Shown here one piece after another: positions 39,908 through 57,186 of a stretch of DNA of 61,585 bases. Under the pieces are notes generated by a model that searched no databases, had not been told where the DNA came from, and was given only the letters and a program-made list of their open reading frames with translations. Source of the stretch: Myxococcales bacterium (GTDB taxonomy: Bacteria > Desulfobacterota > Binatia > HRBIN30 > BPIQ01); assembly GCA_037440145.1 (NCBI GenBank), contig JBBIUR010000020.1, positions 1-61,585 of the forward strand, given 5' to 3'. A program made the position numbers and the translations under genes. Within the stretch, counting starts at the first letter, position 1, and each line of letters starts with the position of its first letter.

Positions 39908-39921
39908 CAGGAGGGAGAACT

Positions 39922-40770
39922 GTGGAACCGACGGGCGTCGATGTTGCTGCATTGGATCATCCCTTTCGGGAAGGGCTGCTGGCGGGCCGCGTGGCGATCG
40001 TCACCGGAGGCGGCACCGGGTTGGGCAAGGCGATCGCGTCGCTGTATGCGCGGCTCGGGGCGCGCGTGGTGCTGGCGAGCCGATCGATGGACCATCTGCT
40101 GCCGGCGGCCGAGGAGATCCGAGCCGCCGGCGGGGTGGCGTCGGTGGTTTCGGTGGACGTGCGCAAGGTGGAGGACGTCGACCGGATGATCGCGCACACG
40201 CTGGAGACCTTCGGGAAAATGGACATCTTGGTGAACAACGCGGCGGCAAACTTCCTCGTGCAAGCGGAAAACCTTTCGCCGCGCGGCTGGAACGCCTTGG
40301 TGGACATCGTGCTCAACGGCTCGTACTACGCCAGCCGGGCGTTCGGGCGCGCCTTGATCGAGCGCAAGCAGCCCGGCCAGATCTTGAACATAGTGTCCAC
40401 CTATCCCTGGACGGGCTGTCCGGGTGCCGTGCACCACGCTTCCGCCAAAGCGGGTGTGATGGCGCTGACAATGACGCTGGCGGTAGAGTGGGCGCGCTAC
40501 GGGATCCGCGTGAACGCCATTGCGCCCGGCCCCTTCGAAACCCCAGGGCCGATGGAAAAGTTCAACTTCACCGTCGGCGACGAGGTCTACGAGCGGGTGC
40601 GGCAGGACGTGCCCCTCAAGCGCTTCGGCCAGCCGCGCGAGCTGGCATGGCTGGCAGCGTACCTGGTCAGCGATTACGCCGCATTTATCAACGGAGAAAC
40701 CGTGGTCATCGACGGCGGCACGTGGCTGAGCAAGGGGTATTTCCCTTACTTCACGCCCGGCGTGCTCTGA
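39922..40770 (+). CDS. SDR family oxidoreductase, 2,4-dienoyl-CoA-reductase-like subtype
   Basis: GTG 39922 follows AGGAGGGAG. Motifs VTGGGTGLGKA and NNAA. The active-site region VHHASAKAGV lacks the classical Tyr, as in DECR-type SDRs (from memory). Confidence 0.75.
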   Translation: MEPTGVDVAALDHPFREGLLAGRVAIVTGGGTGLGKAIASLYARLGARVVLASRSMDHLLPAAEEIRAAGGVASVVSVDVRKVEDVDRMIAHTLETFGKMDILVNNAAANFLVQAENLSPRGWNALVDIVLNGSYYASRAFGRALIERKQPGQILNIVSTYPWTGCPGAVHHASAKAGVMALTMTLAVEWARYGIRVNAIAPGPFETPGPMEKFNFTVGDEVYERVRQDVPLKRFGQPRELAWLAAYLVSDYAAFINGETVVIDGGTWLSKGYFPYFTPGVL

Positions 40771-41078: not shown

Positions 41079-41174
41079 CAGGTGCGGCACCCGCGCCGCG
41101 AGTTGGCCAAAATCAGCGCTTGCCTAAAAGGCCCGTCATCTGTTAACAAACGTTCGTTTGCTGCTGAGGGGCCA

Positions 41175-43173
41175 ATGGGGAGCCGAGTCGTCCCGGGGGA
41201 CGGAGCCGCGGTTCGGTTTGCGGCGGGCAGTGGGCGGGTGCCGGAGGGCATCAGCCGGCGCGGGTTTCTCTGCAGTGCGGGAGCGGCTGCGGTAGCGCTC
41301 TGTCTGGGCCGCCTGGTGCCTCGGGCGACTGCAAGTGGTGCCGGGGCGGTGGCGGTGAGCCCCGCAGTGCCTGACTACCGGAGCTGGGAGGACGTGTACC
41401 TGAGGCGGTGGACTTGGGATCGCGTGGTCAAAGGCGCCCACCACGTGATCAACTGCGTCTCATCGTGCCCGTTCCTCGTCTTCGTCAAGGACGGCATCGC
41501 TTGGCGCGAGGAACAGAACGCGGTGATGGAGGCGAACGGCCCAGCGCTGCCCGACTTCAATCCCCGCGGCTGCCAGAAGGGCATCTGCACGAGCCAACTC
41601 ATGTACGGCCCGCAGCGCCTGAAGTATCCGCTCGAGCGGGTGGGGCCGCGCGGTTCGGGGAAATGGAGGCGGATTTCGTGGGACGAAGCCCTCACGCCGA
41701 TCGCCGACGCGATCCTCGATGTGGCCGCGCAGGACGGGACGGAGTGCGTGGTGTACGACAGCGGCACGGCGAACGCCGATTACAGCGCTTCGACTGCGGG
41801 CGAGGTGCACTTTTTCGATCTGCTGGGTGCCACCCAGCTCGACGGCTGGGCCGCGGCGGGTGACATGCCGCTCGGCGTCCTCATGACGTGGGGGATCTTC
41901 AATGTCGACGGAACCTCCGACGACTATTTCCACGCCGACCTGATCTACTTGTGGCTCGGCAACCCGACGTACACGCGCATTCCCGATGCGCACTTCATCT
42001 GGGAGGCGCGCTACCGCGGCAGCAAGGTGGTCAGCGTCGCCCCCGACTACAACGCCTCGAGCGTGCACGCGGACCTGTGGGTCCATCCCCGCGTGGGCAC
42101 CGATGCGGCGCTCGCCCTCGGCATGGCGCAGGTGATCGTCGCGGAGCGGCTCTACCGCGCCGACTTCGTAAAGGAGCAGACCGATCTCCCGCTGCTGGTC
42201 CGGGAAGACACGCGGCGCTTTCTGCGCCAGTCAGACCTGCGACAGGGCGGAGCGGAGAACATCTTCTACTTGTGGGATACCCGCAGGGGATCTGCCGTCC
42301 AGGCGCCGGGGTCCGAGGGATTGGATCGCGGCACGACGCTAGAGCTGGGCGCGCTGGATCCAGCCCTGGAGGGGCGCTTCGAAGTGCGCCTGGCCGACGG
42401 GCGGAGTGTCGGCGTGCGCCCGCGAGTTTGCTGCAGCCCGGGCCGTCACGGTCTTCGGATCGTGGGGCATGATGAAGCACCACCACAGCGATCTCGTCCA
42501 GCGCTCGCTCCTCCTGTTGCTGGCGCTCACCGGCAACGTGGGCCGCCGCGGCGCCGGGGTGCGCATCGGCGCCTGGTACATGATGAGCAGCCTCGAGCCC
42601 TTGCTGGCGAAGGTGAAGCCAGCCTGGTGGCAGAAGCTGCTCTTGCGAGTGTACCGCCCCACGGTGCGAGAGCTGATCAGCTACTTCCGCGATTACGAGC
42701 GCGAGCACATGTACATGAACATCCCCGCGCTCCTGTTCCTCTACTACCATGGGGGCCTGAAGGAGCTCGTCGACCGGCCGACCGGCGGCCACACGCGCTG
42801 GTCGATCCACTCGACCTTCCGCGACGAAGTGCACATGCTGCGGTTGCAGCGCGGCGCTCCCGTTGCCTACCTCAACCCGGAGGACGCAGCGGCGCGCGGC
42901 ATCCGCGACCACGACCGAATCCGCGTGTTCAACGACGTCGGATCGTGCGAGCTCGCGGCCAAGATTTCCCCTTCGGTCCAACCCGGCCAGGTGATCGTCT
43001 ACCACGCCTGGGAGCCGTTCCAGTTTCCCGAGTGGCGCAGCCCGCAAGACCCGGTCCCTTCGCCATGGAAGTCGCTCCACTTGGCGAGCTACGGGCAGCT
43101 CCACTACCGCTTCCTGTACGCGGGGCCGCACCACGCGCCGCGGGCGACGGCGGTGGAGGTGGCGAGGGCGTGA
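41175..43173 (+). pseudogene. decayed NarG/EbdA-like molybdoenzyme gene, paralogue A3 (frameshifting deletion plus a large in-frame deletion)
   Basis: The first ~415 codons (frame of ORF 41082-43226) match A4 closely up to ...GVRP (about nt 42420). Homology then resumes in another frame (ORF 42406-43173: REFAAARAVTVFGSWGMMKH...). A second gap joins LKELVDRP directly to TGGHTRWSIHS at nt 42780/42781. The twin-arginine motif SRRGFL is retained. Confidence 0.8.
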
Positions 43174-43207
43174 GGGGTGGCTCCGAGCGAAAGGGGGTTT
43201 CCGAGCC

Positions 43208-46066
43208 ATGCACGAGATGGGAATGACGCGCAGGCAGTTCCTGTGGGGGATCGGCGCGACGGGGTTGAGCTTGTCGCTCGCCCGCCTCGCGTGGCTGCCC
43301 GGGCGGGCACTCGCCCAAGGGGTCCCCGCTCCCCTGCCGCCCTACCGGGAGTGGGAGGACCTCTACCGGCAAAAGTGGCAGTGGGACAAGGTGGTCAAAG
43401 CCGCCCACCATGTCGTCAACTGCGCTTCCTCGTGCCCGTTCGACGTCTTCGTGAAGGACGGGATCGTGTGGCGCGAGGAGCAGAACGCGGTCATGGAGGC
43501 GAATAAGCCCTCGCTGCCCGACTTCAATCCCCGCGGCTGCCAGAAGGGCGTCTGCACGAGCCAGTTGATGTACAGCCCGCAGCGGCTGAAGTATCCCCTC
43601 AAGCGCGTCGGCCCGCGCGGCTCGGGAAAGTGGAAGCGCATCTCTTGGGACGAGGCGCTCACGGAGATCGCCGACAAGATCCTCGACGTCGCGCTCCGGG
43701 ACGGCATCGAGTGCGTCGTCTACGATAGCGGCACCGCGAACGCCGGTTACGACGCGCCGACCGCAGGGGAAACCCATTTCTTTAACCTGCTCGGCTGCAC
43801 GCAGCTCGATGGCTGGGCGGCTGTGGGCGACATGCCGCTCGGTATGATCCTCACGTGGGGCCTGTTCAACGTCGACAGCACGTCCGACGATTACATGAAC
43901 GCAGACTTGATCCTGCTGTGGCTGGGCAACCCGACGTACACGCGCATCCCCGACGCGCACTTCATCTGGGAGGCGCGCTACCACGGCAGCAAGGTGGTCA
44001 GCATTGCCCCGGACTACAATGCGTCGAGCATCCACGCCGACCTATGGTTGAACCCCCGCATCGGCACCGATGCTGCCCTCGCCCTCGGGATGGCCCACGT
44101 GCTGGTCGAGGAACAGCTCTACAACGCCGCCTTCGCGAAAGAGCAAACCGACCTGCCGTTGCTCGTCCGGGAGGATACGGGGCGCTTTCTGCGCGAGTCG
44201 GACCTCCGCCAGGGCGGGGCGGAGAACATCTTCTACCTCTGGGATACCCGCAGCGGCTCCGCCGTGCAGGCCCCGGGCAGCGAGGGGCTCGGGCGCAGCA
44301 CCACGCTCGCACTGGGCGGACTGGACCCCGCGCTGGAGGGACAGTTCGAAGTGCAGCTCGCAAGCGGGCAGAAGGTGCGCGTGCGGCCCGTTTTCGAACG
44401 GCTGCGGAAGCGACTGGCGGATTACCCGCCAGAGAAGGTGGCGCAGATCACCGGCGTGAACGCCAAGCTCGTCGCCGACCTGGCGCGAGAGATGGCCCGC
44501 GCCAAGGCCGTCACGATGTTCGGCTCCTGGGGCATGATGAAGCACTATCACAGCGACCTCTTCCAGAGATCGATCCTGTTGCTGCTGGCGCTTACGGGCA
44601 ACGTGGGCCGCCGCGGCGCGGGGATCCGGGTGGGCGCTTGGTATATGCTCAGCAGCCTCGAGTACATCCTGAGCGCCGTCAAGCCGACCTGGTACCAGAA
44701 GGCCCTGATGGCAGTCTTCAAGCCCACGGTGCGGGAGCTGATCGGGTATTTCCGCGCCTACGAGCGAGAGCACATGTACATGAACGTGCCTGCGCTGATG
44801 TTTCTGTACGAGCACGGCGGACTGAAGGAGGTGGTGGATCGGCCCGAGTACCATGATGCGAACCCCGGCAAGGTGCTGCCCGAAGCGATGAAGGAGTCGA
44901 TCGAGCACGAGTGGGTGCCGCTCTACCCGAAGCCCGGAAAACCGCCGCGCGTCTACATTCACACACGCGTCAACCCCCTGCGGCGCTGGCCGGCCCCGCA
45001 GGTGGTCGAGAAACACCTGTGGCCCAAGCTCGAGCTGATCGTGGCCGTGAACCTCAAGATGTCCACGACGGCGGCGAAGTCGGATATCGTGCTCCCCGCA
45101 TGCGGCCCGTACGAGCGGCGCGGAATCAAGTACGCCCAGAGCTACGTGCCCTATTACGCCGTGGGCGAGAAGGCCGTGGAGCCGCTGGGCGAGTCGAAGA
45201 GCGAGTGGGAAATCGCCGGCCTGCTGGCGCGCAAGATCCAGGAACGGGCGCGCGCCCGAGGCATGCAGCCCATTCGCGATGCCAAGGGCAAGCCCCGCGA
45301 CTTCACCACGCTCTATGACCAGTGGAGTCACCAGGGGCGGTTCCAGCCCGAGGACGATCTGCCTTTTTACGAAGCGGTGACGCGAGAGTCGCCCGAGATC
45401 GGCAAGATCCCGTGGGCGGAGGCCGCGCGGCAGGGGGCGGTGCGCATTCAGGATGTGGGTCCGTTCCGCACGCACACCAACCTCTGCAGCGACTACGAGC
45501 CCGGAGATACGATCTACCCCTGCCAGTGGTTCGTGCAGCACAAGCAGCCGTGGCCGACGCTGACGGGCCGGCAGCAGTTCTACATCGACCACGAGTGGTT
45601 CTTGCGCGCCGGAGAGGAGCTGCCGGTGCACAAGGAGCCCCCCAAGGCCGGGGGGGACTATCCGTTGCGCCTGACCGGCGGCCACACGCGCTGGTCGATC
45701 CACTCCATCTGGCGCGAGGAAAGGCACATGCTGCGGTTGCAACGGGGCGAGCCCGTGATGTACATCTCGCCTGCCGATGCGGCCGCGCGCGGCATCGGCG
45801 ACAACGATCGCGTGCGGATGTTCAACGACGTGGGCGCTTGCGTGCTGCGGGCAAAAATCGCCCCGGCGGTGCAGCCGGGAACGGTGATCGTGTACCACGC
45901 TTGGGAGCCGTTCCAGTTTCCCGGCTGGCGCGGGAGCCAGGAGCCCGTGGCCTCGCCGTGGAAGTCGCTGCACGTCGCGGAATACGGCCAGCTCCACTAC
46001 CGGTTCCTGTTCGCCGGCCCGCACCACGCACCGCGTGCGACCAGCGTGGAGGTCCAGCGTGCCTGA
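43208..46066 (+). CDS. Tat-signal molybdopterin oxidoreductase catalytic subunit (NarG/EbdA-like), paralogue A4
   Basis: Motifs MHEMGMTRRQFLWGIGATGLSLSLARL...ALA-QG, AAHHVVNCASSC...NPRGCQKGVC, GDMPLGMILTWG, IPDAHFIWEARYHG and APDYNASSIHADLWL; 952 aa. The exact start (ATG 43208, or the 2nd or 3rd ATG) is uncertain. Confidence 0.8.
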   Translation: MHEMGMTRRQFLWGIGATGLSLSLARLAWLPGRALAQGVPAPLPPYREWEDLYRQKWQWDKVVKAAHHVVNCASSCPFDVFVKDGIVWREEQNAVMEANKPSLPDFNPRGCQKGVCTSQLMYSPQRLKYPLKRVGPRGSGKWKRISWDEALTEIADKILDVALRDGIECVVYDSGTANAGYDAPTAGETHFFNLLGCTQLDGWAAVGDMPLGMILTWGLFNVDSTSDDYMNADLILLWLGNPTYTRIPDAHFIWEARYHGSKVVSIAPDYNASSIHADLWLNPRIGTDAALALGMAHVLVEEQLYNAAFAKEQTDLPLLVREDTGRFLRESDLRQGGAENIFYLWDTRSGSAVQAPGSEGLGRSTTLALGGLDPALEGQFEVQLASGQKVRVRPVFERLRKRLADYPPEKVAQITGVNAKLVADLAREMARAKAVTMFGSWGMMKHYHSDLFQRSILLLLALTGNVGRRGAGIRVGAWYMLSSLEYILSAVKPTWYQKALMAVFKPTVRELIGYFRAYEREHMYMNVPALMFLYEHGGLKEVVDRPEYHDANPGKVLPEAMKESIEHEWVPLYPKPGKPPRVYIHTRVNPLRRWPAPQVVEKHLWPKLELIVAVNLKMSTTAAKSDIVLPACGPYERRGIKYAQSYVPYYAVGEKAVEPLGESKSEWEIAGLLARKIQERARARGMQPIRDAKGKPRDFTTLYDQWSHQGRFQPEDDLPFYEAVTRESPEIGKIPWAEAARQGAVRIQDVGPFRTHTNLCSDYEPGDTIYPCQWFVQHKQPWPTLTGRQQFYIDHEWFLRAGEELPVHKEPPKAGGDYPLRLTGGHTRWSIHSIWREERHMLRLQRGEPVMYISPADAAARGIGDNDRVRMFNDVGACVLRAKIAPAVQPGTVIVYHAWEPFQFPGWRGSQEPVASPWKSLHVAEYGQLHYRFLFAGPHHAPRATSVEVQRA

Positions 46067-46072
46067 CGGGCG

Positions 46073-48970
46073 GTGGGAAGCCAGAGCGCGCGCGGGGGCG
46101 GGCGATCCGTGACGATCACGCGCCGCGAGTTTCTCCAGGGGACCGGGGCGGCGGTCCTGAGCTTATCGCTCGGGCGGCTCGCGTTCCTCGGCGAAGCGCA
46201 GGCCGCTCGCGCTGTCCCCGGCTCGGGCGTGCCCGACTACCGCAGTTGGGAGGACGTGTACCGGCGCAAGTGGACTTGGGACCGGATCGCAAAAGGCACC
46301 CATTACGTCAATTGCTGGTACCAGCGCGGGTGCAATTGGGATGTCTACGTCAAGGACGGCGTCGTTTTCCGCGAGGAGCAAGCGGCGACCTATCCGCAGA
46401 CGAACCCCGAGGTCCCCGATTTCAACCCCCGCGGCTGCCAAAAAGGGGCCTGCTACAGCTTGCGGATGTACGACCCGGATCGCATCCGCTACCCGCTCAA
46501 GCGAATCGGGCAGCGCGGCGAGGGCAAGTGGAAGCGCGTGAGCTGGGAAGAAGCGCTGCGCGAAATCGCATCGGCGCTGCTCGAGGTCCTCCGCGAGGAA
46601 GGGCCCGGAGCCATTTACTGGGACATGGGCACTGCTGCAACCAACGGCTGCCACGGGCTCGGCCTCTTCCGCACCTCGCAGGTGCTCGACACGCCCTTCC
46701 TCGACATGAACGCGGAGATCGGCGACCACCACCCGGGCGCAGCCGTCTCTTGCGGCAAGATCGTCTTCGCCAGCTCGGGCGACGATCTCTTTTACTCCGA
46801 CCTGATTCTCATCTGGGGCGGAAACCCGCTCTACACCCAAATTCCCAACGCCCATTTTTTCACCGAGGCGCGCTACCGCGGCGCGCGGGTAGTCACCATC
46901 GCGCCCGACTACAGCCCGTCGGCAATCCACGCGGATCTGTGGGTGCCCCTCCAGGTGGGTACGGACGCCGCGCTGGGCCTGGCACTCGCTCACGTGATCG
47001 TCGCCGAAGGGCTCTGCGACCGCAGCTTTGTGGCCGAGCAAACCGACCTGCCCTTGCTCGTGCGCAGGGACAACCGTCGCTTCCTGCGCGCGCGCGATCT
47101 GCAAAAAGGAGGCAGCGAGGAGACGTTCTATCTCTACGACCGCCGCACCGGTCGGGTCCGGGAGGCTCCATCGGCCCGCCTCGACCTGCAAGGGATCGAG
47201 CCTGCGCTCGAAGGGGAGTTCGAGGTCTCGACGCCTTCGGGACCCGTGACCGTCGTTCCGGTCTTCCAGTTGCTGCGTGAGCACCTGGCGGCCTATTCGC
47301 CCGAGGCGGCGGCGAAGATTACGGGTACGCCCCCCGAGGTAATCCGTCGCCTCGCGCGCGACATCGCCCGGGCAAAGGCCGCCACGGTGCTGACGCAGTC
47401 GAATTTCTCGAAGTTCTACCACGGCCTGGAAATGGAGCGCGCGCAGATCCTGGTGCTCGCACTCTGCGGCCACTTCGGGAAAAAGGGCAGCGGCCTGAAC
47501 GCCTTCCCTTGGTTGACGATCGACTCTTCCGAGGCGCTCGGAACCGCTCCGGCCCTGCCGATGCAGTTGGCCCTGATCGCGCTGGGAGCGCAGAACGCGC
47601 CGAAGTGGGCGGCGGCGAAGTGGAAGGGCTGGACTGACGAGATGTTCCTCTACAACGAGGCGCGCGAGATGTACCGCAAAGGGGGGTTCGTCTCCTCGGT
47701 CCTCTTCTATTACCTTCACGGGGGCTTCAAGGAGCAGATGCGCCGTGCCGGCAAGGTGGATCCGAGCTTGCGGCGGGAACTGGACGCGTACGTGGAGGAG
47801 GCCTTGGCCAGGGGCTGGCAGATCGCGCCGACCACGCCCCCGAAAATTCTCTTCGCGGAGGGCGGCAACATCTTCCGTCGGGTGCGCGGCTACCCGGTGC
47901 TGCTGGAGAACCTGCTCCCCAAGCTGCGGCTGCTCGTGACGGTCGACTGGCGCATGAGCACGACAGGTCTGTACAGCGATTACGTGTTGCCCGCGGCCGG
48001 GTATTACGAAAAGGATGACATAACCTGGGCGACGCCGATCGCGCCGTTCGCCCACGTGACCACCAAGGCAGTCGAGCCCCTCGGCGAGGCGAAGCACGAG
48101 TGGCAGTTCCATTGCCTGCTGCTGAAGGAGCTGCAGGCCCAGGCGGTCGCCGCCGGGCAGACCACGTACCGCGATCGCGCCGGCAACGAGCGGCGCCTCG
48201 ATCGCGTGTACGACGAGTTCACGTTCGGCCAGCGCTACACCGAGCGCGATGCGGAGCCGTTCTTGCGCGACATGGTCGCAATGGCGACAAACCTGAAGGG
48301 CACGACCTGGGACGAGCTGAAGGAGAAGGGATTTGCCCGCTACACGGGGCTCGGCATGGGCCTGATCAACATCGGGAACGCGACCGATATCGAACCCGGC
48401 CAGACGGTCACGGCAAACCGCTGGCACGTCGAGAAGAAAATGCCGTGGCCGACTCTTACCCGCCGCATCCAGTTTTACATCGACCACGACCTCTACCTCG
48501 AGCTGGGCGAGGAGCTGCCGGTGCACAAAGACAATCCGCCAATCGGCGGCAACTACCCGCTGCAGATGACCGGCGGGCACGCGCGCTGGTCCATCCATAC
48601 GATGTGGCGGCCCGATCCGCGGCTGCTGCGGTTGCAGCGGGGCGAGCCGGTCTTGTTTCTCAGCACAGCCGACGCGCGCGCTCGCGGCATTGGCGACAAC
48701 GACCGCGTGCGGGTCTACAACGATTTCGGTTCCTTCGAGGTCCGGGCCCGCATCGCCCCCTCGGTGCGCCCCGGCCAGGTGATCATCTACCACGCCTGGG
48801 AGCCGTTCCAGTTTCGGGGGCGGCGGTCCCACCAAGTCGTCACTCCCAGCCCGATCAACCCGATCCAACTGGCGGGCGGGTATTTTCACTTGCAGCCGAT
48901 GCCCATTGCGTGCGAGCCGGGGCAGAACGACCGCGGCACGCGCGTGGAGGTGGAAAAGATCGCGACCTGA
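46073..48970 (+). CDS. Tat-signal molybdopterin oxidoreductase catalytic subunit (NarG/EbdA-like), divergent paralogue A5
   Basis: Motifs ITRREFLQGTGAAVLSLSLGRL...AQA-A, GTHYVNCWYQRGC...NPRGCQKGAC, IGDHHPG, IPNAHFFTEARYRG and APDYSPSAIHADLWV. The start is GTG 46073 or GTG 46109 (giving VTITRREFL). Confidence 0.8.
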   Translation: MGSQSARGGGRSVTITRREFLQGTGAAVLSLSLGRLAFLGEAQAARAVPGSGVPDYRSWEDVYRRKWTWDRIAKGTHYVNCWYQRGCNWDVYVKDGVVFREEQAATYPQTNPEVPDFNPRGCQKGACYSLRMYDPDRIRYPLKRIGQRGEGKWKRVSWEEALREIASALLEVLREEGPGAIYWDMGTAATNGCHGLGLFRTSQVLDTPFLDMNAEIGDHHPGAAVSCGKIVFASSGDDLFYSDLILIWGGNPLYTQIPNAHFFTEARYRGARVVTIAPDYSPSAIHADLWVPLQVGTDAALGLALAHVIVAEGLCDRSFVAEQTDLPLLVRRDNRRFLRARDLQKGGSEETFYLYDRRTGRVREAPSARLDLQGIEPALEGEFEVSTPSGPVTVVPVFQLLREHLAAYSPEAAAKITGTPPEVIRRLARDIARAKAATVLTQSNFSKFYHGLEMERAQILVLALCGHFGKKGSGLNAFPWLTIDSSEALGTAPALPMQLALIALGAQNAPKWAAAKWKGWTDEMFLYNEAREMYRKGGFVSSVLFYYLHGGFKEQMRRAGKVDPSLRRELDAYVEEALARGWQIAPTTPPKILFAEGGNIFRRVRGYPVLLENLLPKLRLLVTVDWRMSTTGLYSDYVLPAAGYYEKDDITWATPIAPFAHVTTKAVEPLGEAKHEWQFHCLLLKELQAQAVAAGQTTYRDRAGNERRLDRVYDEFTFGQRYTERDAEPFLRDMVAMATNLKGTTWDELKEKGFARYTGLGMGLINIGNATDIEPGQTVTANRWHVEKKMPWPTLTRRIQFYIDHDLYLELGEELPVHKDNPPIGGNYPLQMTGGHARWSIHTMWRPDPRLLRLQRGEPVLFLSTADARARGIGDNDRVRVYNDFGSFEVRARIAPSVRPGQVIIYHAWEPFQFRGRRSHQVVTPSPINPIQLAGGYFHLQPMPIACEPGQNDRGTRVEVEKIAT

Positions 48971-48992
48971 GCAGTCGCTCGGGGGTGGAGCC

Positions 48993-50474: not shown

Positions 50475-50492
50475 GGCCGCGGGGAGAGAGAC

Positions 50493-52022
50493 GTGCCGCA
50501 GGAGAGTTTCGACGCGATCGTGGTGGGGGCGGGGTTCGGCGGGGCCGCGTGTGCGGCGTTGTTGGCCAAGCGCGGTGCCCGCGTGCTCTTGCTCGAGAAG
50601 AACGCGCGCGCGGGCGGCAAGGCGATGGTGGTTTCGAAGAACGGCTTCACGTACGAGCTGTGGCCGGTCATCCACGCGCCGGCGCAGGAGAGCCGGTGCG
50701 TTGCGGTCCTGCGCGAGCTCGGGATGGAAGGCGAGGTCGATTTGGTCTTCCCGCGCGTGCGGGGTGCGATCTACATCGATTCGAGCGGCGCGCTGCGCCG
50801 CTTTCCGGACGACCCGAGCCCCGACCCGGCAAAGGTTTTTGACGCGATCGGAGTCGCTCCCGAAGAGCGAGAGCGCGCCCTTGCGGTCCTCACCGAGCTC
50901 GTGACGATGAGCGCTGCAGACGCAGCGGCGCTCGACGAGGTCTCGTTCGCGCAGTGGCTGGAGCAGCGGCAGACCCCGCGGCCCGTGGCGACCTATCTCC
51001 ACGCGATCGCCAACGGCGTCTTCATGGTTCCCTCGGATCTGCTGGCCGCTTCGGAGGCGATCCGCACGGTGCAGGAGATCCTCCTGCGCGGGGGTGGGTT
51101 GTACTGCCGCAATGGCGGCATCGGGCGCCTGGCAGAAGTGTACGCTTCGGCCGTGGAGAAGTTCGGAGGGCGCGTCCTGTACCGCACGCGCGTCCGCAAG
51201 ATCGCAGTGCGTGAGGGCCGGGTGACCGGGGTGATCGCGGACAAGGGCGCCTTTGCCGCGCCGGTCGTGGTGAGCAACGCGGGGTTGCAGCCGACGGTGC
51301 TGCGGCTGGCAGGCAAAGAGCACTTCGACCGCAGCTATGTGAACTACGTGCGCGACCTCACCCCGTCTTGGGGAATGATGGGCGTGCGCTACTTCCTGCG
51401 CCCCCGGATGCTCGACGAGCCGTTCTACATGGTCTTTTCGGACGACGCGTACTGGACCACCGAGCGCTGGCTGCGCGCCGCCAACGGCGACGTTCCCGAA
51501 CGGGTGATCCTTTGGGTCCAGGTTCCCTCGGCCTACGACTCTGCTCTCGCCCCACCCGACCGCCAGTGCGTGCTCACCGGAGTGTGGTGCTCGCCCGACC
51601 CGGCGGCGCCGGAAGCGGAGAAGGAAAAGTGGTGGCGGAAAGTGGACGAGATGATGGAGCGCGTATGGCCGGGTTTTCTCGGCCGGGTCTACGATCGCGA
51701 GCCGTATGACGTGCGAGAAGTCTCTGCGCTCTCGCGGGAGCCCGCTTTCCCGGGCGTGGGAGGCGAGTGCATCGGCCTGGGCCAGGTGATCGGCCAGTGC
51801 GGGCGCTTCAAGCCGTCGGCGCGAGCACCGCTGAGTGGCCTCTTCTATGTCGGCGCCGATGCGGAGGGGTACGGCTGCGGCACGCACCTGGCGGTCGAAT
51901 CGGGAATCCGGGTGGCCGAGCAGGTCGAGCGCTTCCTGCGGCTGCGGCGGGCTCTGTTCGGTACCCGGACGGCGCCTGGGGCTCGCCGGGCGCCGGGCGG
52001 CAGGGGCAAAGGCGGCCACTGA
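50493..52022 (+). CDS. CrtI/phytoene-desaturase-family FAD-dependent oxidoreductase, copy 2 (paralogue of the preceding gene)
   Basis: GTG 50493 follows GGGGAGAGAG. DAIVVGAGFGGAACAALLAKRGARVLLLEKNARAGGK. Shared blocks with copy 1 include FDRSYVNY, GGECIGLGQVIGQCGR and GLFYVGADA. Confidence 0.7.
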   Translation: MPQESFDAIVVGAGFGGAACAALLAKRGARVLLLEKNARAGGKAMVVSKNGFTYELWPVIHAPAQESRCVAVLRELGMEGEVDLVFPRVRGAIYIDSSGALRRFPDDPSPDPAKVFDAIGVAPEERERALAVLTELVTMSAADAAALDEVSFAQWLEQRQTPRPVATYLHAIANGVFMVPSDLLAASEAIRTVQEILLRGGGLYCRNGGIGRLAEVYASAVEKFGGRVLYRTRVRKIAVREGRVTGVIADKGAFAAPVVVSNAGLQPTVLRLAGKEHFDRSYVNYVRDLTPSWGMMGVRYFLRPRMLDEPFYMVFSDDAYWTTERWLRAANGDVPERVILWVQVPSAYDSALAPPDRQCVLTGVWCSPDPAAPEAEKEKWWRKVDEMMERVWPGFLGRVYDREPYDVREVSALSREPAFPGVGGECIGLGQVIGQCGRFKPSARAPLSGLFYVGADAEGYGCGTHLAVESGIRVAEQVERFLRLRRALFGTRTAPGARRAPGGRGKGGH

Positions 52023-52033
52023 GGAGCGGCGAG

Positions 52034-53209
52034 ATGTACCTGGACTTCACGCCCGAGCAACAGGCACTGCGCCGCGAGATCCGCGGATACATGCGCGCCC
52101 TGATGACCCCAGAGCTGCGCGCGGAAGTGGAGGCGAGCGAAGGCGGGGGCCCGCTGTACCGGCAGGCACTGCGCAAGATGGGCGCTGACGGGTGGCTCGG
52201 CATCGGCTGGCCGAGGGAATACGGCGGGCAGGGGCGCTCGGCGATCGAACAGTTCATCTTCAGCGACGAGGTGCAGCGGGCAGGGTTTCCGCTGCCGTTC
52301 CTCACCGTGAACTCCGTCGGCCCCACGATCATGAAGTACGGCACCGAGGAGCAAAAGGCGGAGTTTCTGCCGCGCATCCTTCGGGGCGAGGTGCACTTTG
52401 CAATCGGTTACTCGGAGCCGTCCGCGGGGACGGACCTGGCATCGCTGCGCACCCGGGCGGTTCGCGACGGGGACTGGTACGTGATCAACGGCAGCAAGGT
52501 GTTCACGAGCCTGGCGGAGTTCGCCGACTACATCTGGCTGGCAGCGCGCACCGATCCGGATGCCAAGAAGCACCGGGGCATCTCCATATTCATGGTCGAC
52601 ACGCGGTCGCCCGGTTACCGCTGTACCCCGATCTGGACCATGGCGGGCGTGCGCACGAACGCGACGTACTACGAGGACGTGCGCGTCCCGGCCTCGATGC
52701 GTGTGGGCGCGGAGAACGAGGGCTGGAGCTTGATCGTGAACCAGCTCAACCACGAGCGGATTTCGCTCGTCACTCCGGGCCCGGCCGAGCGCGTGTTCGA
52801 AGAACTGTGCGCCTGGGCGCGGCAGGCGCGCTTGCCCGACGGCAGGCGCGTGATCGACCAGGAGTGGGTGCAGCTCAAACTCGCGCGCGTCCGCGCCAAG
52901 CTCGCCGTGCTGCGCCTGCTGAGCTGGCGCCAGGCATGGGCGATCGCGCGCGACGAGCTGAACTTCGCGGAGGCATCCGCTGTGAAGGTCTACGGCACCG
53001 AGACCTGCGTCGAGGTGTGCCGGGATTTGCTCGAGATCGCGGGCCATCGGGGGTTCGTCCGGCGTGGCTCTCCGGAAGCGCTGCTGCGCGGCTTGCTGGA
53101 ACACCTCCACCGGGCCGCGCTGATCTTGACCTTCGGCGGCGGTACGAACGAAATCCAGCGCGATATCATTGCGATGGCAGGGCTCGGAATGCCGCGGGAA
53201 CTCCGGTGA
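52034..53209 (+). CDS. acyl-CoA dehydrogenase
   Basis: ATG 52034 follows GAGGAG. Motifs IGYSEPSAGTDLASLRTRAVRDGDWYVINGSKVFTS and C-terminal GGGTNEIQRDIIA. Confidence 0.85.
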   Translation: MYLDFTPEQQALRREIRGYMRALMTPELRAEVEASEGGGPLYRQALRKMGADGWLGIGWPREYGGQGRSAIEQFIFSDEVQRAGFPLPFLTVNSVGPTIMKYGTEEQKAEFLPRILRGEVHFAIGYSEPSAGTDLASLRTRAVRDGDWYVINGSKVFTSLAEFADYIWLAARTDPDAKKHRGISIFMVDTRSPGYRCTPIWTMAGVRTNATYYEDVRVPASMRVGAENEGWSLIVNQLNHERISLVTPGPAERVFEELCAWARQARLPDGRRVIDQEWVQLKLARVRAKLAVLRLLSWRQAWAIARDELNFAEASAVKVYGTETCVEVCRDLLEIAGHRGFVRRGSPEALLRGLLEHLHRAALILTFGGGTNEIQRDIIAMAGLGMPRELR

Positions 53210-53240
53210 CTGGACGGCGAGAGCCAGCGGGATCGGTGGG

Positions 53241-54344
53241 ATGGACTTCTCGTATACGGAAGAGCAAGCGGCGCTGCGAGAGCTGGCCCTGCGGATCGTT
53301 GGAGACCACGCGGCCCACGAGCGCCTGAAAGCGGTCGAGGCCGACCCGCAGCGGTTCGACCGAGAACTGTGGAGGGCGCTCGCTGAGGCGAGTGTGCTGG
53401 GCGTCGCGATCCCGCAGGAGTTCGGCGGTGCAGGGCTGGGCCTGGTGGAACTGTGCCTGCTCCTCGAAGCCGTCGGGCGCCACTGCGCCCCGATCCCCGC
53501 GTGGCCAAGCCTGGTGCTAGGTGCGCTCCCGATCGCCGAGTTGCCGGCGGTCGCGCGCGGCGATGCCGTGCTGACGGCCGCACTGGTCGATGCTGGGTCG
53601 GAGGACCCTCTGGCCCCCACGGTGGTGGCGCGGCGCGAGGGTTCGAGTTGGCGGCTTCGGGGAGTGAAGATCTGCGTGCCGGTGGTGCATCTGGCGGAAC
53701 GCGTGCTGGTGCCGGCGCGCGCCGACGGGGAAGGTCTCGGGGTGTTTCTGCTCGATCCAGAAGCGGCTGGCGTGGAGGCGGAGCGGCAGGAGACGACCAT
53801 GGGCGAGCCGCACTTCCGGCTCACCCTGCGCGATGTAGCGGTGGGCGGTGAGGATGTGCTGGCGGGCCCCGAGCAGGGCAGAGAGGTCGTCGACTGGATG
53901 CTCGACCGCGCGCTTGCGGGCCTGTGTGCCATCGAGGTGGGCGTCGTGGAACGCGCGCTGCGGATGACCGCCGAGTACACGTCGACCCGAGAGCAGTTCG
54001 GCAAGCCCCTGGCCAAGTTTCAGGCCGTGGCCCAGCGTGCTGCGGATGCCTTCATCGATACGGAAGCGGTGCGGTGGACGGCATGGCACGCGATCTGGCG
54101 CCTCTCGCAGGGTCTACCCGCCAAGGACGAACTGGCAATTGCGAAATTCTGGGTGGGAGAAGGCGGCCACCGCGTGGTGTGCGCCGCGCAGCACCTCCAC
54201 GGGGGCATCGGCCTCGACCTGGACTATCCCCTGTACCGCTCGTACCTGTGGTCGAAGCAGATCGAGTTGACCTTGGGTTCGGCCACGCGCCATCTGGTGG
54301 CGCTGGGCCGCCGGCTGGCCGCTGGCGAGGAGGGTGGCGGGTGA
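53241..54344 (+). CDS. acyl-CoA dehydrogenase family protein (second member of an adjacent pair)
   Basis: ATG 53241. Motifs MDFSYTEEQAALRE, IPQEFGGAGLGLVELCLLLE, REQFGKPLAKFQAV and HGGIGLDLDYPL. It lacks the GGGT.EI tail of its neighbour. Confidence 0.75.
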   Translation: MDFSYTEEQAALRELALRIVGDHAAHERLKAVEADPQRFDRELWRALAEASVLGVAIPQEFGGAGLGLVELCLLLEAVGRHCAPIPAWPSLVLGALPIAELPAVARGDAVLTAALVDAGSEDPLAPTVVARREGSSWRLRGVKICVPVVHLAERVLVPARADGEGLGVFLLDPEAAGVEAERQETTMGEPHFRLTLRDVAVGGEDVLAGPEQGREVVDWMLDRALAGLCAIEVGVVERALRMTAEYTSTREQFGKPLAKFQAVAQRAADAFIDTEAVRWTAWHAIWRLSQGLPAKDELAIAKFWVGEGGHRVVCAAQHLHGGIGLDLDYPLYRSYLWSKQIELTLGSATRHLVALGRRLAAGEEGGG

Positions 54345-54402
54345 GAGCCCCAAAGGGGAGCGGGAGCGGCAGCGCGCCCGCGGTGCCCCGCGCTTTGACG
54401 GC

Positions 54403-55545
54403 ATGAAGGACGAAGTTGCAATCGTCGGCATTGGCGAGACCGCCTTCGCGAAGCGCCTCGAACCGACGGAGCTGGAGCTCGCATGCCAAGCGGTGAAGGC
54501 AGCGCTCGACGATGCCGGGATCGCCCCCGCCGAGGTCGACGCGCTTGGCTCGTACACGATGGAGGAGACACAGGAGTTCGAACTGGCGCGCAACTTGGGC
54601 TTTGGCGACATCGCGTTTTTCAGCCAGGTCGGTTACGGCGGCGGGGCGGGCTGCGCTGCCGTGGGGCATGTGGCAATGGCCATCGCCGCGGGGGTGGCGA
54701 ACGTGGGGGTGGTTTGGCGGGCGCGCAAGCGGGGCGATCCGTCGAAGCGGGTGTGGGCGCAGGTGAGCGAGCGCGTCGCCGACCACTGGAAGTGGTCGCG
54801 CCCGTTCGGCCTGCTGCGCCCGGTGGACGAAGTCGCCTTGCTCACGCGGCGCTACATGCACGAGTACGGGGCGACGCGCGAGCACTTGGCAAACGTGGTC
54901 CTCGCGGTCCGCCGCCACGGCAATCGGAACCCGCGCGCTGCCATGTACGAGCGGTCGCTCACGCGCGAGGAGTACATGAACGCGCGCTGGATCTCCGAGC
55001 CCCTGTGCCTGTACGACAACTGCCTCGAAAGCGATGGGGCCGTCGCCGTCGTGCTGGCGCGCGCCGACCGTGCGCGCGATTGCCGGCACCGCCCGGCATA
55101 CGTGCACGCTTGGTCCCAGGGCCTCTCTCGCGAGCATCAGGTGATGACGAACTACCACTGCGAGAACCCGCTGCGCGGGACTGCAGCGGTGGCAGCCGCT
55201 AACCTGTGGCGGCGCGCGGATTTCGGGCCGCGCGACGTGAAGGTCGCGCAGTTCTACGACGCCTTCAGCCCGCTCATTCTCTTTTCTCTGGAAGCGTACG
55301 GGTTCTGCGGCCAGGGCGAGGCCGCGGCCTTCGCCGAAAGCGGGGCGCTCGAGCTCGGGGGCCGCCTCCCCGTCAATACCGCGGGCGGGAGCCTGTCGGA
55401 GGCGTACGTCCACGGCATGAACTTGATCGCGGAAGGGGTGCGCCAGATCCGCGGCACGTCGACGGCCCAGGTGCCCGACGCGGATACTTGCCTGGTCACG
55501 AGCGCGTACCCGGTGCCGACCAGCGCGCTTTTGTTGCGGAGGTGA
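54403..55545 (+). CDS. thiolase-like lipid-transfer-protein (Ltp / SCP-x type) enzyme
   Basis: ATG 54403 (MKDEVAIVGIGETAF). Motifs DNCLESDGAVAVVL, FYDAFSPLILFSLEAYGF and VNTAGGSLSEAYVHGMN are typical of the non-acetoacetyl thiolase-like group. Confidence 0.7.
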   Translation: MKDEVAIVGIGETAFAKRLEPTELELACQAVKAALDDAGIAPAEVDALGSYTMEETQEFELARNLGFGDIAFFSQVGYGGGAGCAAVGHVAMAIAAGVANVGVVWRARKRGDPSKRVWAQVSERVADHWKWSRPFGLLRPVDEVALLTRRYMHEYGATREHLANVVLAVRRHGNRNPRAAMYERSLTREEYMNARWISEPLCLYDNCLESDGAVAVVLARADRARDCRHRPAYVHAWSQGLSREHQVMTNYHCENPLRGTAAVAAANLWRRADFGPRDVKVAQFYDAFSPLILFSLEAYGFCGQGEAAAFAESGALELGGRLPVNTAGGSLSEAYVHGMNLIAEGVRQIRGTSTAQVPDADTCLVTSAYPVPTSALLLRR

Positions 55546-55550
55546 ACGCC

Positions 55551-56003
55551 GTGATCGAAGGAATCCCGCTCCCCGTTACCGACGACCCTCGCGACCAGCC
55601 CTTCTGGGAAGCAGCTCTGCGCGGAGAACTCGTGCTCCAGCGCTGCGCGCACTGCGGCCGGTGCCGCTTCCCCCCGCGGCCCATGTGCCCCCGTTGCCAG
55701 AGCTTCGAGCACGAGTGGCGCGCCGTTTCGGGCCGCGGCCGCATCTGGTCGTTCGCAGTGCTCCACCCCCCGCTGCTGCCGGCATTTGCCAAGTTCGCGC
55801 CGTACCCGGTGATCCTAGTGGAGCTCGAAGAAGACCCCTCGCTGCGCATGGTGGGCAACTTGGTGCCGGGGCCGGAGGGCGAGATCCATCAGGTGGACCC
55901 CCGCGGCGTGCAGATCGGGGCTCCCGTGCGCGTCGTGTTCCAGAAGGTCGCCGAGGACGTGGCTCTGCCGCGGTGGGTGCTGGTGGAACCGGAAGCTGCA
56001 TAG
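55551..56003 (+). CDS. DUF35-type Zn-ribbon + OB-fold protein
   Basis: GTG 55551 follows GGAGGTGA, which spans the upstream stop. Motif CAHCGRCRFPPRPMCPRC (CxxC...CxxC), followed by an OB-like segment VILVELEE...LRMVGNL. Confidence 0.7.
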   Translation: MIEGIPLPVTDDPRDQPFWEAALRGELVLQRCAHCGRCRFPPRPMCPRCQSFEHEWRAVSGRGRIWSFAVLHPPLLPAFAKFAPYPVILVELEEDPSLRMVGNLVPGPEGEIHQVDPRGVQIGAPVRVVFQKVAEDVALPRWVLVEPEAA

Positions 56004-56031
56004 CCAGACCTCGCGCGCAAAGGAGGGGGCG

Positions 56032-57186
56032 ATGCCCGAAGCATTCATCGCAGATGCCGTCCGCACCCCGGTGGGCAAGCGCGGCGGCGGCTTGAGCCGG
56101 ATCCACCCCGCCGATTTGGGTGCACACGTGATCCGGGCGCTGATCGAGCGCAACGGGCTCGATCCGCTCGCCGTCGAGGACGTGATTTTCGGCTGCGTCG
56201 ATACGATCGGCCCGCAGGCGGGCGACATCGCGCGGACGTGCTGGCTCGCTGCGGGCCTGCCCGAGGAGGTGCCGGGAGTCACGGTCGACCGGCAGTGTGG
56301 CTCTTCCCAGCAGGCGATTCACTTTGCTGCCCAAGCGGTCATGAGCGGCACGAGCGACGTGGTGATCGCTGGCGGGGTGCAGAGCATGAGCGTGATTCCG
56401 ATCGCCTCCGCGATGACCGTTGCGCAGCCCATGGGGTTTCCCGACCCGTTTTCCGGATCGCGCGGGTGGCGGGCTCGCTACGGCGCACAAGAGGTGTCCC
56501 AGTTCCGCGCCGCCGAGATGATCGCGGAGAAGTGGAATATCTCGCGCGCAGAGATGGAGCAGTTCGCTCTGGAAAGCCACCGCCGCGCCGTGCGCGCCAT
56601 CGACGAGGGGAAGTTCGCGGCTGAGATCGTGCCCTGCGACGGCGTCGCAGCGGACGAGGGGCCGCGCCGGGACACGTCGCTCGAAAAGATGGCGGCGCTG
56701 CCGCCGCTGCGCGGGGGAGGGCGGATCACGGCAGTAGTGTCGAGCCAGATTTCGGATGCCGCTGCGGCCCTGCTCATCGCCTCGGAGCGCGGGCTGCGGA
56801 GGTGCGGGTTGCGGCCGCGGGCGCGCATTCACCACCTCAGCGTTCGCGGCGCCGACCCGATCTGGATGCTCACGGCGCCGATCCCGGCGACGCGCTACGC
56901 GCTGGAGCGGACCGGTCTTTCCCCGGCGGATATCGACCTCGTGGAGATCAACGAGGCGTTCGCCTCCGTCGTGCTTGCCTGGCAGCGCGAGACCGGCTGG
57001 GATCTCTCGCGCGTGAACGTGAATGGCGGCGCGATCGCCCTCGGCCACCCGCTGGGAGCGACCGGTGCGCGGCTGATGACCACGCTGCTCTACGAGCTGG
57101 AGCGCCGCGCGGGCCGCTATGGACTGCAGACGATGTGCGAGGGCGGCGGGCAGGCGAACGTCACGATCATCGAGCGCACCGCATGA
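56032..57186 (+). CDS. acetyl-CoA C-acyltransferase (degradative thiolase)
   Basis: Motifs [21 protein letters not shown] (nucleophile Cys), [17 protein letters not shown] and CEGGGQA. Confidence 0.85.

Follow-up and report, generated by a model that had tools for sequence, protein, structure and literature searches.

A candidate operon for removing sterol-type isoprenoid side chains without oxygenases in an uncultured bacterium, probably of the class Binatia

Genes of the plus-strand train

Contig JBBIUR010000020.1 of assembly GCA_037440145.1, 61,585 nt long and called the window below, is filed under the name Myxococcales bacterium and carries a GTDB lineage within Binatia. Its plus strand contains a train of genes (39886-57186) whose part 41175-57186 the initial annotation, made from the sequence alone, had read as a side-chain beta-oxidation module of the type of the igr operon of Mycobacterium tuberculosis, with molybdenum (Mo) hydroxylases standing where a cytochrome P450 would be expected. 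The window is 68% G+C, so that plain lists of open reading frames (ORFs) are full of spurious frames; the gene map presented here is based on frame analysis of third-position GC (GC3), and domains were assigned with Pfam. Both confirm the gene coordinates given in the initial annotation. The gaps between genes measure 5-96 nt from the first gene through the thiolase gene, and 5-58 nt in the part from A3 to the thiolase. The features of the train are listed below, together with an interrupted gene that stands next to it.

39886..40770, plus strand: short-chain dehydrogenase/reductase (SDR), 2,4-dienoyl-CoA reductase-like, first gene of the train (Pfam adh_short_C2; kept in the collinear metagenome contig L089)
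40776..41078, plus strand: ThiS/MoaD-like small protein (Pfam ThiS, 29 bits; C-terminus ...PMAGG; kept in L089)
41130..41173, no strand: imperfect palindrome of 44 nt with centre AACGTT (repeat search; 25-nt arms, 76% complementary)
41175..43173, plus strand: A3, pseudogene of a type II Mo-bisPGD alpha subunit (bisPGD, bis(pyranopterin guanine dinucleotide)), decayed paralogue of A4 (Pfam: half of the Molybdopterin domain only)
43208..46066, plus strand: A4, alpha subunit of the type II dimethyl sulfoxide (DMSO) reductase family, exported by twin-arginine translocation (TAT), alphaA type, 952 aa (Pfam Molybdopterin + Molydop_binding)
46073..48970, plus strand: A5, TAT-exported type II alpha subunit, alphaB type, 965 aa (of the window alpha subunits, the closest to EbdA)
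48993..50474, plus strand: Crt1, flavoprotein of the CrtI/amine-oxidase superfamily (Pfam Amino_oxidase + NAD_binding_8; ATG start with a Shine-Dalgarno sequence)
50493..52022, plus strand: Crt2, CrtI-superfamily flavoprotein of an uncharacterised clade (Pfam)
52034..53209, plus strand: ACAD1, ChsE4-like, the alpha chain of a steroid-type heteromeric acyl-CoA dehydrogenase (ACAD) (PDB match 4X28_A)
53241..54344, plus strand: ACAD2, ChsE5/Tcur3481-like beta subunit (PDB matches 6WY8_A, 4X28_D)
54403..55545, plus strand: Ltp, Ltp2-like thiolase-fold aldolase of the SCP2/Ltp type (PDB 6OK1_A; NF005892)
55551..56003, plus strand: free-standing DUF35 protein of 150 aa, C4 zinc ribbon and OB fold (Pfam zf-ChsH2 + OB_ChsH2_C)
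56032..57186, plus strand: degradative 3-ketoacyl-CoA thiolase (Pfam Thiolase_N/C; NF005865, 696 against a cutoff of 591)
57263..58429, plus strand: ACAD3, interrupted acyl-CoA dehydrogenase gene (Pfam on its 3' part)

A4 and A5 are intact. A4 passes the family model TIGR03479 (DMSO_red_II_alp; 1010, cutoff 984.75) and A5 stays narrowly under it (966.5). Each begins with a TAT motif (TRRQFL in A4, TRREFL in A5) followed by an FS0 cluster motif (H-x3-C-x3-C, HHVVNCASSC...C, in A4; HYVNCWYQRGC in A5), and the Mo-ligand Asp223 of EbdA (2IVF) is matched in both by an aligned Asp, in GDMPLG of A4 and IGDHHPG of A5. A5 scores 709 bits against EbdA and 509 bits against PcrA. The NCBIfam equivalog model for EbdA gives 658-722 bits (722 on A5) with a cutoff of 2000, and at scores so far under the cutoff the alpha subunits are not EbdA orthologues. 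A homologue search with A5 returned proteins of metagenome-assembled genomes (MAGs) only.

The initial annotation had taken A3, A4 and A5 alike as hydroxylase genes. For A4 and A5 this remains the favoured reading; A3 is a pseudogene, which leaves two intact hydroxylase genes in the operon and not three. A3 is 76% identical to A4 in amino acids and 77-79% in DNA. Its coding frame shifts from 0 to 1 around 42300-42440, comparison with A4 finds a net frameshifting deletion of 98 nt at about 42422-42440, and an in-frame deletion of 828 nt at 42779/42780 has removed the equivalent of A4 residues 547-820. The ORF 41082-43226 was rejected as an intact protein of 714 aa because its 3' half lies outside the coding frame. 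The collinear contig L089 retains the upstream palindrome and the first codons of A3 and lacks almost all the rest of the gene. The dN/dS ratio of A3 against A4 is 0.18, compared with 0.06 for a pair of A4 orthologues at similar dS, which fits relaxed constraint on A3. In ACAD3 the reading frame runs into a TAA stop at 57446-57448 (PER*GGLG), at a position that should encode Tyr (TAC/TAT); either the gene is a pseudogene or the stop is a sequencing error. The lesions of A3, like this stop, could be assembly or sequencing errors.

The ACAD pair, Ltp and DUF35 genes 3' of the flavoproteins proved, as the initial annotation had supposed, to be nearest to steroid-type enzymes. ACAD1 and ACAD2 are adjacent genes, each of which best matches one chain of the solved steroid ACAD heterotetramers. 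ACAD1 scores 498 bits against M. tuberculosis ChsE4 (4X28_A; 58% identity) and 439 bits against 6WY8_B, with generic ACADs at 157 bits or less; ACAD2 scores 279 bits against Tcur3481 (6WY8_A) and 190 bits against ChsE5 (4X28_D), with generic ACADs at 99 bits or less. The middle domain of ACAD2 is degenerate and under the Pfam cutoff. NQLNHERISL of ACAD1 aligns to NQLNHERVAL of ChsE4, so that Glu247 of the NHER motif is conserved; the comparable place in ACAD2 reads LDRA. This Glu247 is reportedly the catalytic base of ChsE4, as described by Yang et al. in 2015. The likening of the pair to that of the igr operon therefore holds as far as a heteromeric steroid-type pair is concerned; among the solved structures, which leave FadE28/29 out of the comparison, the nearest is ChsE4-ChsE5 (FadE26/27).

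Ltp scores 339 bits against the Ltp2 aldolase of Thermomonospora curvata (TcLtp2, 6OK1_A; 46% identity), followed by a thiolase at 145 bits; the proteobacterial aldolase Sal gives 109 bits and BbsB 87 bits. On NF005892 it reaches 543, over the cutoff of 469. The catalytic residues of TcLtp2 are Tyr294, in the motif YDHF, and Tyr344, and its DUF35 partner has a C4 zinc-ribbon pattern (PMC12329534). Y285 of Ltp (YDAF) and the Tyr of its EAYVHGMN align to these two residues, and both are conserved. The DUF35 protein, presumed to be the partner of the aldolase, has a canonical zinc ribbon, C-x2-C-x10-C-x2-C (CAHC-GRCRFPPRPM-CPRC), and finds its best PDB match in the DUF35 domain of ChsH2 (6OK1_B, 72 bits), so that its likeness to the igr ChsH2 domain is borne out in sequence; in architecture it is free-standing and not fused to a hotdog domain. 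Its ribosome-binding site (GGAGG) overlaps the stop codon of Ltp, as had been claimed. The thiolase is not distinctively FadA5-like, FadA5 being its second-best PDB match (276 bits).

At the head of the train, the SDR scores 305 bits against NF005811 (2,4-dienoyl-CoA reductase), slightly below the cutoff of 318, and its real start is probably further downstream. The palindrome ends immediately 5' of the A3 start, and its core, TGTTAACAAACGTT(C/T)GTTT, is also present in L089 (about 1170-1210). It is possibly an operator or promoter region, a candidate on sequence grounds. TetR genes stand at the head of the related operons L001 and L002 described below. A promoter and terminator scan of the 68% GC window was uninformative: no promoter-like sites were found, and the terminator-like matches fell within genes.

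Related loci and the Crt2 family

MAGs of uncultured organisms, labelled Candidatus Binatia, Deltaproteobacteria or Myxococcota, supply the nearest homologues. In a Candidatus Binatia MAG (L001/L006) the locus starts with a KstD-family FAD protein, F420-type luciferase-like genes and a FadD3-family ligase and continues with gamma, beta, alphaA, alphaB, Crt2, the ACAD pair, ChsH2 (with DUF35), ChsH1 and Ltp2. Its alphaA is 73% identical to A4, its alphaB 70% to A5, its Crt2 orthologue 69% and its ACAD pair 77% and 68%. The FadD3-family (HIP-CoA-ligase family) gene of L001 scores over the equivalog cutoff; the luciferase-like monooxygenase (LLM) gene of the same locus belongs to the F420-dependent class (TIGR03619). 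In L002, a second relative, gamma, beta, alphaA, alphaB and Crt are followed by a fused ChsH2-ChsH1, Ltp2, a thiolase and an SDR. Beta and gamma genes lie directly 5' of the alpha pair in L001, L002, L009 and L010, and the core gamma-beta-alphaA-alphaB-Crt2, or alphaB-Crt2, recurs in L006, L008, L009, L010, L013 and L017. In Binatia-like MAGs the Crt2-type gene stands immediately 3' of the A5-type Mo alpha gene, and A5 orthologues are immediately upstream of Crt2 orthologues at 7 loci. Most relatives carry one copy, compared with Crt1 and Crt2 here. The contig L089 matches the window collinearly over 13.6 kb, with 82-84% DNA identity, and dN/dS between window genes and their orthologues is 0.06-0.11.

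The block of igr type with Mo hydroxylases in the place of Cyp125, proposed in the initial annotation for the window itself, is thus found in full order in the relatives L001 and L002; the operon of the window is without the ChsH hydratase, beta and gamma genes. As its hydratase the initial annotation had pointed to a gene of the divergent train:

21281..22426, minus strand: double-hotdog MaoC-type hydratase, sole hydratase candidate in the window (Pfam FAS1_DH_region + MaoC)

The gene is indeed present. It lies about 20 kb from the operon, its PDB matches are generic (E about 1e-5), it has no NCBIfam match, and it shares a match of only 36 aa with the ChsH2 of the relatives and no full-length similarity to ChsH1/ChsH2. 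It was rejected as the ChsH1/ChsH2 equivalent on these grounds, and its assignment to the module is withdrawn.

Crt1 and Crt2 are paralogues with 46% identity, and as far as sequence goes their likeness to CrtI is at the level of the superfamily only. They score 94 and 82 bits (Crt2 82) against crtI_fam (TIGR02734), with a cutoff of 238, and are far under every cutoff of the carotenoid equivalog models; in the PDB, Crt2 has distant matches only. In CtmAB and the delta24-desaturase, an N-terminal motif G-F-[LR]-x-[NS]-[TL]-H-A carries the covalently flavinylated His (PMC11061730). The same region reads GFTYDLWPHG in Crt1 and GFTYELWPVIHA in Crt2, and in the alignment the His column is occupied by Trp in both. 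CtmAB-type proteins of the Dehalococcoidia locus L004 show the motif for covalent flavin mononucleotide (FMN) (GFRGNTHA, YFHNTHA) and are 19-21% identical to Crt1 and Crt2. The missing His motif and this low identity rule out Crt1 and Crt2 as proteins of the limonene dehydrogenase (CtmAB) or delta24-steroid desaturase type.

Searched with Crt2, 185,579 species genomes yielded 383 relatives. The best 80 of these are 46-69% identical to it and all come from uncultured lineages; no Sterolibacterium or Castellaniella locus and no cultured organism is among the best 80 of 383. Within 10 kb of these best 80 relatives there are Mo alpha genes at 9 loci, in the Binatia-like group, and CtmAB-type genes at 33, mostly in Dehalococcoidia/Chloroflexota. 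A ChsE4-like ACAD occurs at 15 of the 80, an Ltp2-like gene at 9 and ChsH2/ChsH1-like genes at 10-12. These counts, which measure association only, suggest that the Crt2 family accompanies either class of oxygen-independent enzyme oxidising allylic or tertiary C-H bonds, and aldolase modules as well. In Dehalococcoidia the Crt2-family gene is placed after the CtmAB-type flavoenzymes, in addition to them and not as a substitute. Genes of the ChsE/ChsH/Ltp2 type stand close by in the Binatia-like and the Dehalococcoidia setting alike. It is a tentative and rather doubtful proposal that Crt2-type proteins are an enzyme family new to the anaerobic breakdown of isoprenoids and sterols, where they would partner water-dependent hydroxylases. 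Possibly Crt2 makes or processes a terminal alkene of the C24=C25 type without ATP, replacing the 25-hydroxysteroid kinase and lyase of Sterolibacterium denitrificans.

The locus L004, on a Dehalococcoidia MAG chromosome (CP070667.1, 2028206-2049681), contains two family III CoA-transferases, a CtmAB-type pair and a Crt2-family gene. Four genes of the Ltp type, each accompanied by a free DUF35 gene, are also present, along with a ChsE4-like ACAD and a pair of hotdog genes. L004 is a candidate for a large anaerobic locus for isoprenoid or sterol side chains in an uncultured Dehalococcoidia lineage.

The preferred explanation and its alternatives

Apart from A3-A5, the window encodes two more Mo alpha subunits.

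2970..5852 (start approximate, at the TAT motif ITRRDFL), plus strand: A1, intact Mo alpha subunit, the fourth (Pfam, translation, tree)
24868-27789, minus strand: A2, intact Mo alpha subunit of the same A1/A2/A4 clade (Pfam; sequence identical to P0116)

A1 and A2 likewise have a twin-arginine signal, the FS0 His/Cys3 motif and the Mo-ligand Asp. In the region 634-7779 (plus strand) a weak radical-SAM-like ORF and an SDR precede A1, and a transketolase/DXS-like thiamine diphosphate enzyme of 632 aa follows directly; no beta or gamma gene lies beside A1 in this region.

The alpha subunits were placed in trees by neighbour joining only. The references were taken from PDB alignments, to which E. 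coli NarG and, out of plasmid records, ClrA and haloarchaeal NarG were added; SerA, DdhA, S25dA, S26dA, CmdA and AhyA are not in these trees. PcrA as the sole oxyanion-reductase reference was dropped following PMC10100899, and with ClrA and haloarchaeal NarG added the support for grouping with EbdA weakened. All window alphas fall with EbdA and ClrA in one clade that excludes PcrA and the NarG of haloarchaea and of E. coli (100% bootstrap). There are two alpha clades: the A5 type tends toward EbdA, and the A1/A2/A4 type is separate (99-100% bootstrap) and includes P0052, which JGI labels 'steroid C-25 hydroxylase alpha subunit'. The grouping of the Mo enzymes away from oxyanion reductases, expected in the initial annotation, therefore holds for PcrA and NarG, and only at 68% bootstrap for ClrA. 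With ClrA so placed, and the S. denitrificans sequences outside the tree, phylogeny alone leaves the choice between hydroxylases and Cl/Se-oxyanion reductases undecided, and it is the genomic context that supplies the missing weight.

We consider it fairly probable, judging from sequence comparison, that the operon is a catabolic module which removes a sterol-type isoprenoid side chain without oxygenases, in an uncultured, probably Binatia-class bacterium. Homology, the placement of the Mo subunits outside PcrA and NarG, and synteny support the earlier suggestion that one plus-strand train combines oxygen-independent hydroxylation with the breakdown of a branched side chain, isoprenoid or steroid. 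This copy of the operon is rearranged and partly decayed. The comparisons above establish gene content and order, levels of homology, catalytic residues and synteny in relatives; from these we infer what the substrate is, in which order the reactions run, what Crt1/Crt2, the aldehyde:ferredoxin oxidoreductase (AOR) and the CoA-transferases do, and that the locus still functions.

Several points weigh against this explanation. A4 scores equally against EbdA (2IVF) and PcrA (612 bits each), the raw identity of the alpha subunits to EbdA (37-39%) is not above that to PcrA (37-41%), and the group of window alphas and EbdA excludes ClrA with no more than the modest bootstrap given above. The beta, gamma and ChsH genes of the relatives are missing near this rearranged operon: tblastn with the L001 and L002 beta (Fer4_11, four iron-sulfur (FeS) clusters) and gamma (EB_dh) proteins found none in the window, and Pfam and tblastn with the relatives' proteins found no ChsH1/ChsH2 hotdog gene within the operon. 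There is no chaperone gene in the 61.6-kb window. A3 and ACAD3 are both disrupted. The Ltp motif is YDAF and not YDHF, with Ala instead of the oxyanion-hole His, a change common to the ChsH1/2-adjacent Ltp2 of L001 and L002 and to one L004 paralogue. In the window none of the markers of ring degradation (AtcABC/1-TDH, AcmB) was recognised. Finally, the hydantoinase/acetone-carboxylase-like neighbours of the operon would also suit a pathway for alkanes or alkylbenzenes.

The equal scores of A4, and the position of ClrA within the same 100% clade, would be expected if the Mo enzymes were respiratory reductases of chlorate, selenate, perchlorate or nitrate that merely adjoin beta-oxidation genes of the fatty-acid type. 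We regard this as very improbable. Five alpha paralogues occur in 61 kb, each among acyl-CoA catabolic genes, and the order alphaA-alphaB-Crt2-ACAD-ChsH-Ltp2 is kept in several MAGs; PcrA and both types of NarG fall outside the clade of the window alphas, and no chlorite dismutase or NarJ/NarI-type neighbours were seen beside A3-A5.

The two deletions of A3, the premature TAA of ACAD3 and the absence of the relatives' beta, gamma and ChsH genes could mean that the locus is a non-functional remnant, a decaying copy of a Binatia sterol operon. This appears improbable given that all the genes from A4 through the thiolase are intact with a strong GC3 coding signal and have the low dN/dS against orthologues reported above. 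Moreover, alpha subunits whose shared beta and gamma genes are distant have precedent (PMC6016249), and both lesions may be errors of the kind already mentioned.

A similarly improbable reading is an anaerobic pathway of the ethylbenzene or alkane type, with an EbdA/AhyA-like hydroxylase, an SDR, an acetone/acetophenone-carboxylase-like enzyme and beta-oxidation; a secondary alcohol would be oxidised to a ketone by the SDR, carboxylated and then passed to beta-oxidation. EbdA is the nearest reference to A5, and several SDR genes, the hydantoinase A/B genes (35927-39952) and the family III CoA-transferases would all find a place in such a pathway. The EbdA equivalog scores far below 2000 argue against it, as do the 3' genes, which are steroid-type (ChsE4/5, Ltp2, DUF35) and not Bal/Bbs-type (BbsB model 92 bits, BbsA 26), and the presence of ChsH1/ChsH2 in relatives.

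Unlikely, yet less so than the foregoing, is a non-steroid isoprenoid substrate (a hopanoid side chain, squalene, a phytol-derived compound, a carotenoid or a monoterpenoid) degraded by the same chemical logic, namely water-dependent hydroxylation beside a tertiary carbon followed by beta-oxidation and aldol cleavage at branch points. The operon contains two flavoproteins of the CrtI superfamily, the Crt2 family of Dehalococcoidia stands beside CtmAB-type (limonene-dehydrogenase-type) genes and several Ltp/DUF35 pairs, and no steroid-ring genes were recognised in the window; according to Jacoby et al. (PMC7411048), the S25DH/S26DH cascade could serve non-steroidal isoprenoids. On the other side, 58% identity of ACAD1 to ChsE4 and 46% of Ltp to the C3-side-chain aldolase TcLtp2, both across phyla, suggest the same substrate class, and the locus of a relative has the FadD3-family gene over its equivalog cutoff and the KstD-family FAD protein.

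Proposed pathway, known systems and significance

If the module acts on a sterol-type side chain, A4 and A5 would be exported by the TAT pathway and, with a beta (FeS) and a gamma (haem b) subunit encoded elsewhere, would hydroxylate the end of the side chain using water, as family membership and synteny suggest. By analogy with S25DH and S26DH, one of them may act on the tertiary carbon and the other on the allylic methyl group. Crt1 and Crt2, in the cytoplasm, may handle the terminal isoprene unit's C=C chemistry, either between the hydroxylations or following them; this is the least certain step. Their likeliest role would be a desaturation that creates the allylic system, or else a later reduction or isomerisation of that bond. 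The aldehyde would then be converted to the acid and to the CoA thioester, for which three genes of the divergent train are candidates:

31490..33895, minus strand: aldehyde:ferredoxin oxidoreductase (W/Mo AOR family; Pfam AFOR_N + AFOR_C; NF007354 242 bits, under the cutoff)
22484-24859, minus strand: double-length family III CoA-transferase, flanking A2 (Pfam)
27798-30356, minus strand: double-length family III CoA-transferase, flanking A2 (Pfam)

The ChsE4/ChsE5-like ACAD would, by homology, begin the beta-oxidation of a 2-methyl-branched acyl-CoA, and the thiolase would free propionyl- or acetyl-CoA. At a fully substituted beta-carbon (C17 in steroids), the Ltp2-like aldolase with DUF35 would perform a retro-aldol cleavage. 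The train's leading SDR would be suited to conjugated dienoyl-CoA intermediates of the kind expected from delta22 sterols. Electrons from the ACAD may pass to the alpha subunit of an electron transfer flavoprotein (ETF), an ETF-beta/old yellow enzyme (OYE) fusion and a membrane HdrD/NarI-like FeS protein (12088-17895).

Some genes named here have unusual architectures. The AOR has an N-terminal extension of about 150 aa in which hydroxylase beta subunits match weakly (33559-33816, tblastn); this suggests a fused ferredoxin-like domain. The two CoA-transferases, of about 790-850 aa, each contain two family III domains and are thus fused dimers. The ORF 12088-14901 (minus strand) encodes in a single frame of 937 aa an ETF (beta-type), an OYE-like FMN and a Pyr_redox_2 domain, an unusual fusion whose architecture resembles FadH/2,4-dienoyl-CoA reductase; it is adjoined by the genes for ETF-alpha (16903-17895) and the HdrD/NarI-like protein (14951-16906). 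Hydantoinase A and B genes, acetone/acetophenone-carboxylase-like or oxoprolinase-like, occupy 35927-39952 on the minus strand, divergent from the operon, and a gene for a LUD/CCG FeS protein (33930-35924) follows them. Several luciferase-like (LLM) genes and a PNPOx-like gene are found at 17924-20453 (minus) and 60144-61013 (plus). In S. denitrificans, luciferase-like and phytoene-dehydrogenase-like proteins co-purified with the 25-hydroxysteroid kinase (PMC8449060). An Amidohydro_2 family gene (9946-10896, minus) and an alpha/beta hydrolase gene (8886-9902, minus) lie side by side. The Pfam scans turned up no oxygenase domain (P450, Rieske or extradiol) in the ORFs they covered.

Among known systems, the closest is the oxygen-independent sterol side-chain pathway of S. 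denitrificans combined with actinobacterial Chs-type enzymes. That pathway consists of S25DH1-4, S26DH1-3, the 25-hydroxysteroid kinase and lyase or the delta24-steroid desaturase, and then beta-oxidation. One S25DH and one S26DH are needed for each type of side chain, and the alpha paralogues can share beta and gamma subunits (PMC7411048, PMC6016249); a flavoprotein desaturase feeds the Mo C26 hydroxylase (PMC11061730). The conserved pair of different alphas in the relatives agrees with the conclusion on S25DH and S26DH. The two systems have in common several paralogous TAT-exported type II Mo-bisPGD alphas, the pairing of different hydroxylases for one side chain, and a CrtI-superfamily flavoprotein linked to a Mo hydroxylase and followed by steroid-type beta-oxidation enzymes (PMC6016249, PMC7411048, PMC11061730). 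In contrast to S. denitrificans, the present bacterium is uncultured, Binatia-like and of a different phylum, and the likeness is one of pathway. Hydroxylase, flavoprotein, ACAD, aldolase and thiolase genes are united here in one operon, whereas those of S. denitrificans are scattered; no phosphotransferase-type kinase gene was seen at this locus; the flavoproteins are without the covalent-FMN His motif; and an AOR and CoA-transferases take the place of the NAD-dependent aldehyde dehydrogenase and CoA ligase.

In M. tuberculosis the corresponding sets are the igr operon (cyp125, fadE28, fadE29, chsH1, chsH2, ltp2) and ChsE4-ChsE5 (FadE26-FadE27). Shared with these are the adjacent heteromeric ACAD pair, the Ltp2-type aldolase, the DUF35 module and the thiolase, and in L001 and L002 also the block ChsH2(DUF35)-ChsH1-Ltp2 in igr order. 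Unlike igr, there are Mo hydroxylases in place of Cyp125, the DUF35 of the window is a separate 150-aa protein, the operon has no MaoC hydratase genes, the ACAD pair is nearest, among the solved structures, to the first-cycle ChsE4-ChsE5, and Ltp has YDAF for YDHF. EbdABC of Aromatoleum aromaticum (2IVF) belongs to the same subfamily and shares the Asp Mo ligand and the His/Cys3 FS0 cluster; in the relatives there are genes for a haem b gamma subunit of the EB_dh type and for a beta subunit with four clusters, and A5 has the C-x5-C spacing of the EbdA FS0 motif. It differs by an identity of only 37-39%, by the steroid-type context here in place of ped/apc/bal genes, and from A1, A2 and A4 by their separate clade with a PcrA-like H-x3-C-x3-C motif. 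Analogously, CtmAB of Castellaniella defragrans and the delta24-steroid desaturase resemble Crt1/Crt2 as adjacent paralogues of the CrtI/amine-oxidase superfamily tied to anaerobic oxidation at allylic positions of isoprenoid units, and differ from them in the flavinylated His, replaced here by Trp, and in the 19-21% identity found with the CtmAB type.

New here are the lineage, the one-operon architecture and the uncharacterised flavoprotein partner. A literature search, not exhaustive, found no paper on such sterol catabolism in Binatia; it returned mostly unrelated results, and one paper on sterol biosynthesis in a sponge symbiont. Biochemical detail on oxygen-independent attack of the sterol side chain comes from S. 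denitrificans only. If our explanation is true, the same chemistry would exist in uncultured Binatia-like lineages of soil and sediment, in one operon with Chs-type side-chain enzymes, and a wider range of organisms would come to be regarded as removing sterols, perhaps along with other isoprenoid lipids, when oxygen is in short supply. The operons would also be compact sets of genes to express in other hosts, for instance to obtain 25- or 26-hydroxylated steroids. The Crt2 family is a candidate for a missing or alternative step between two Mo-dependent hydroxylations, and if it should indeed be a new enzyme family, oxygen-independent degradation of sterols or related isoprenoids would have gone unrecognised in two large uncultured lineages.

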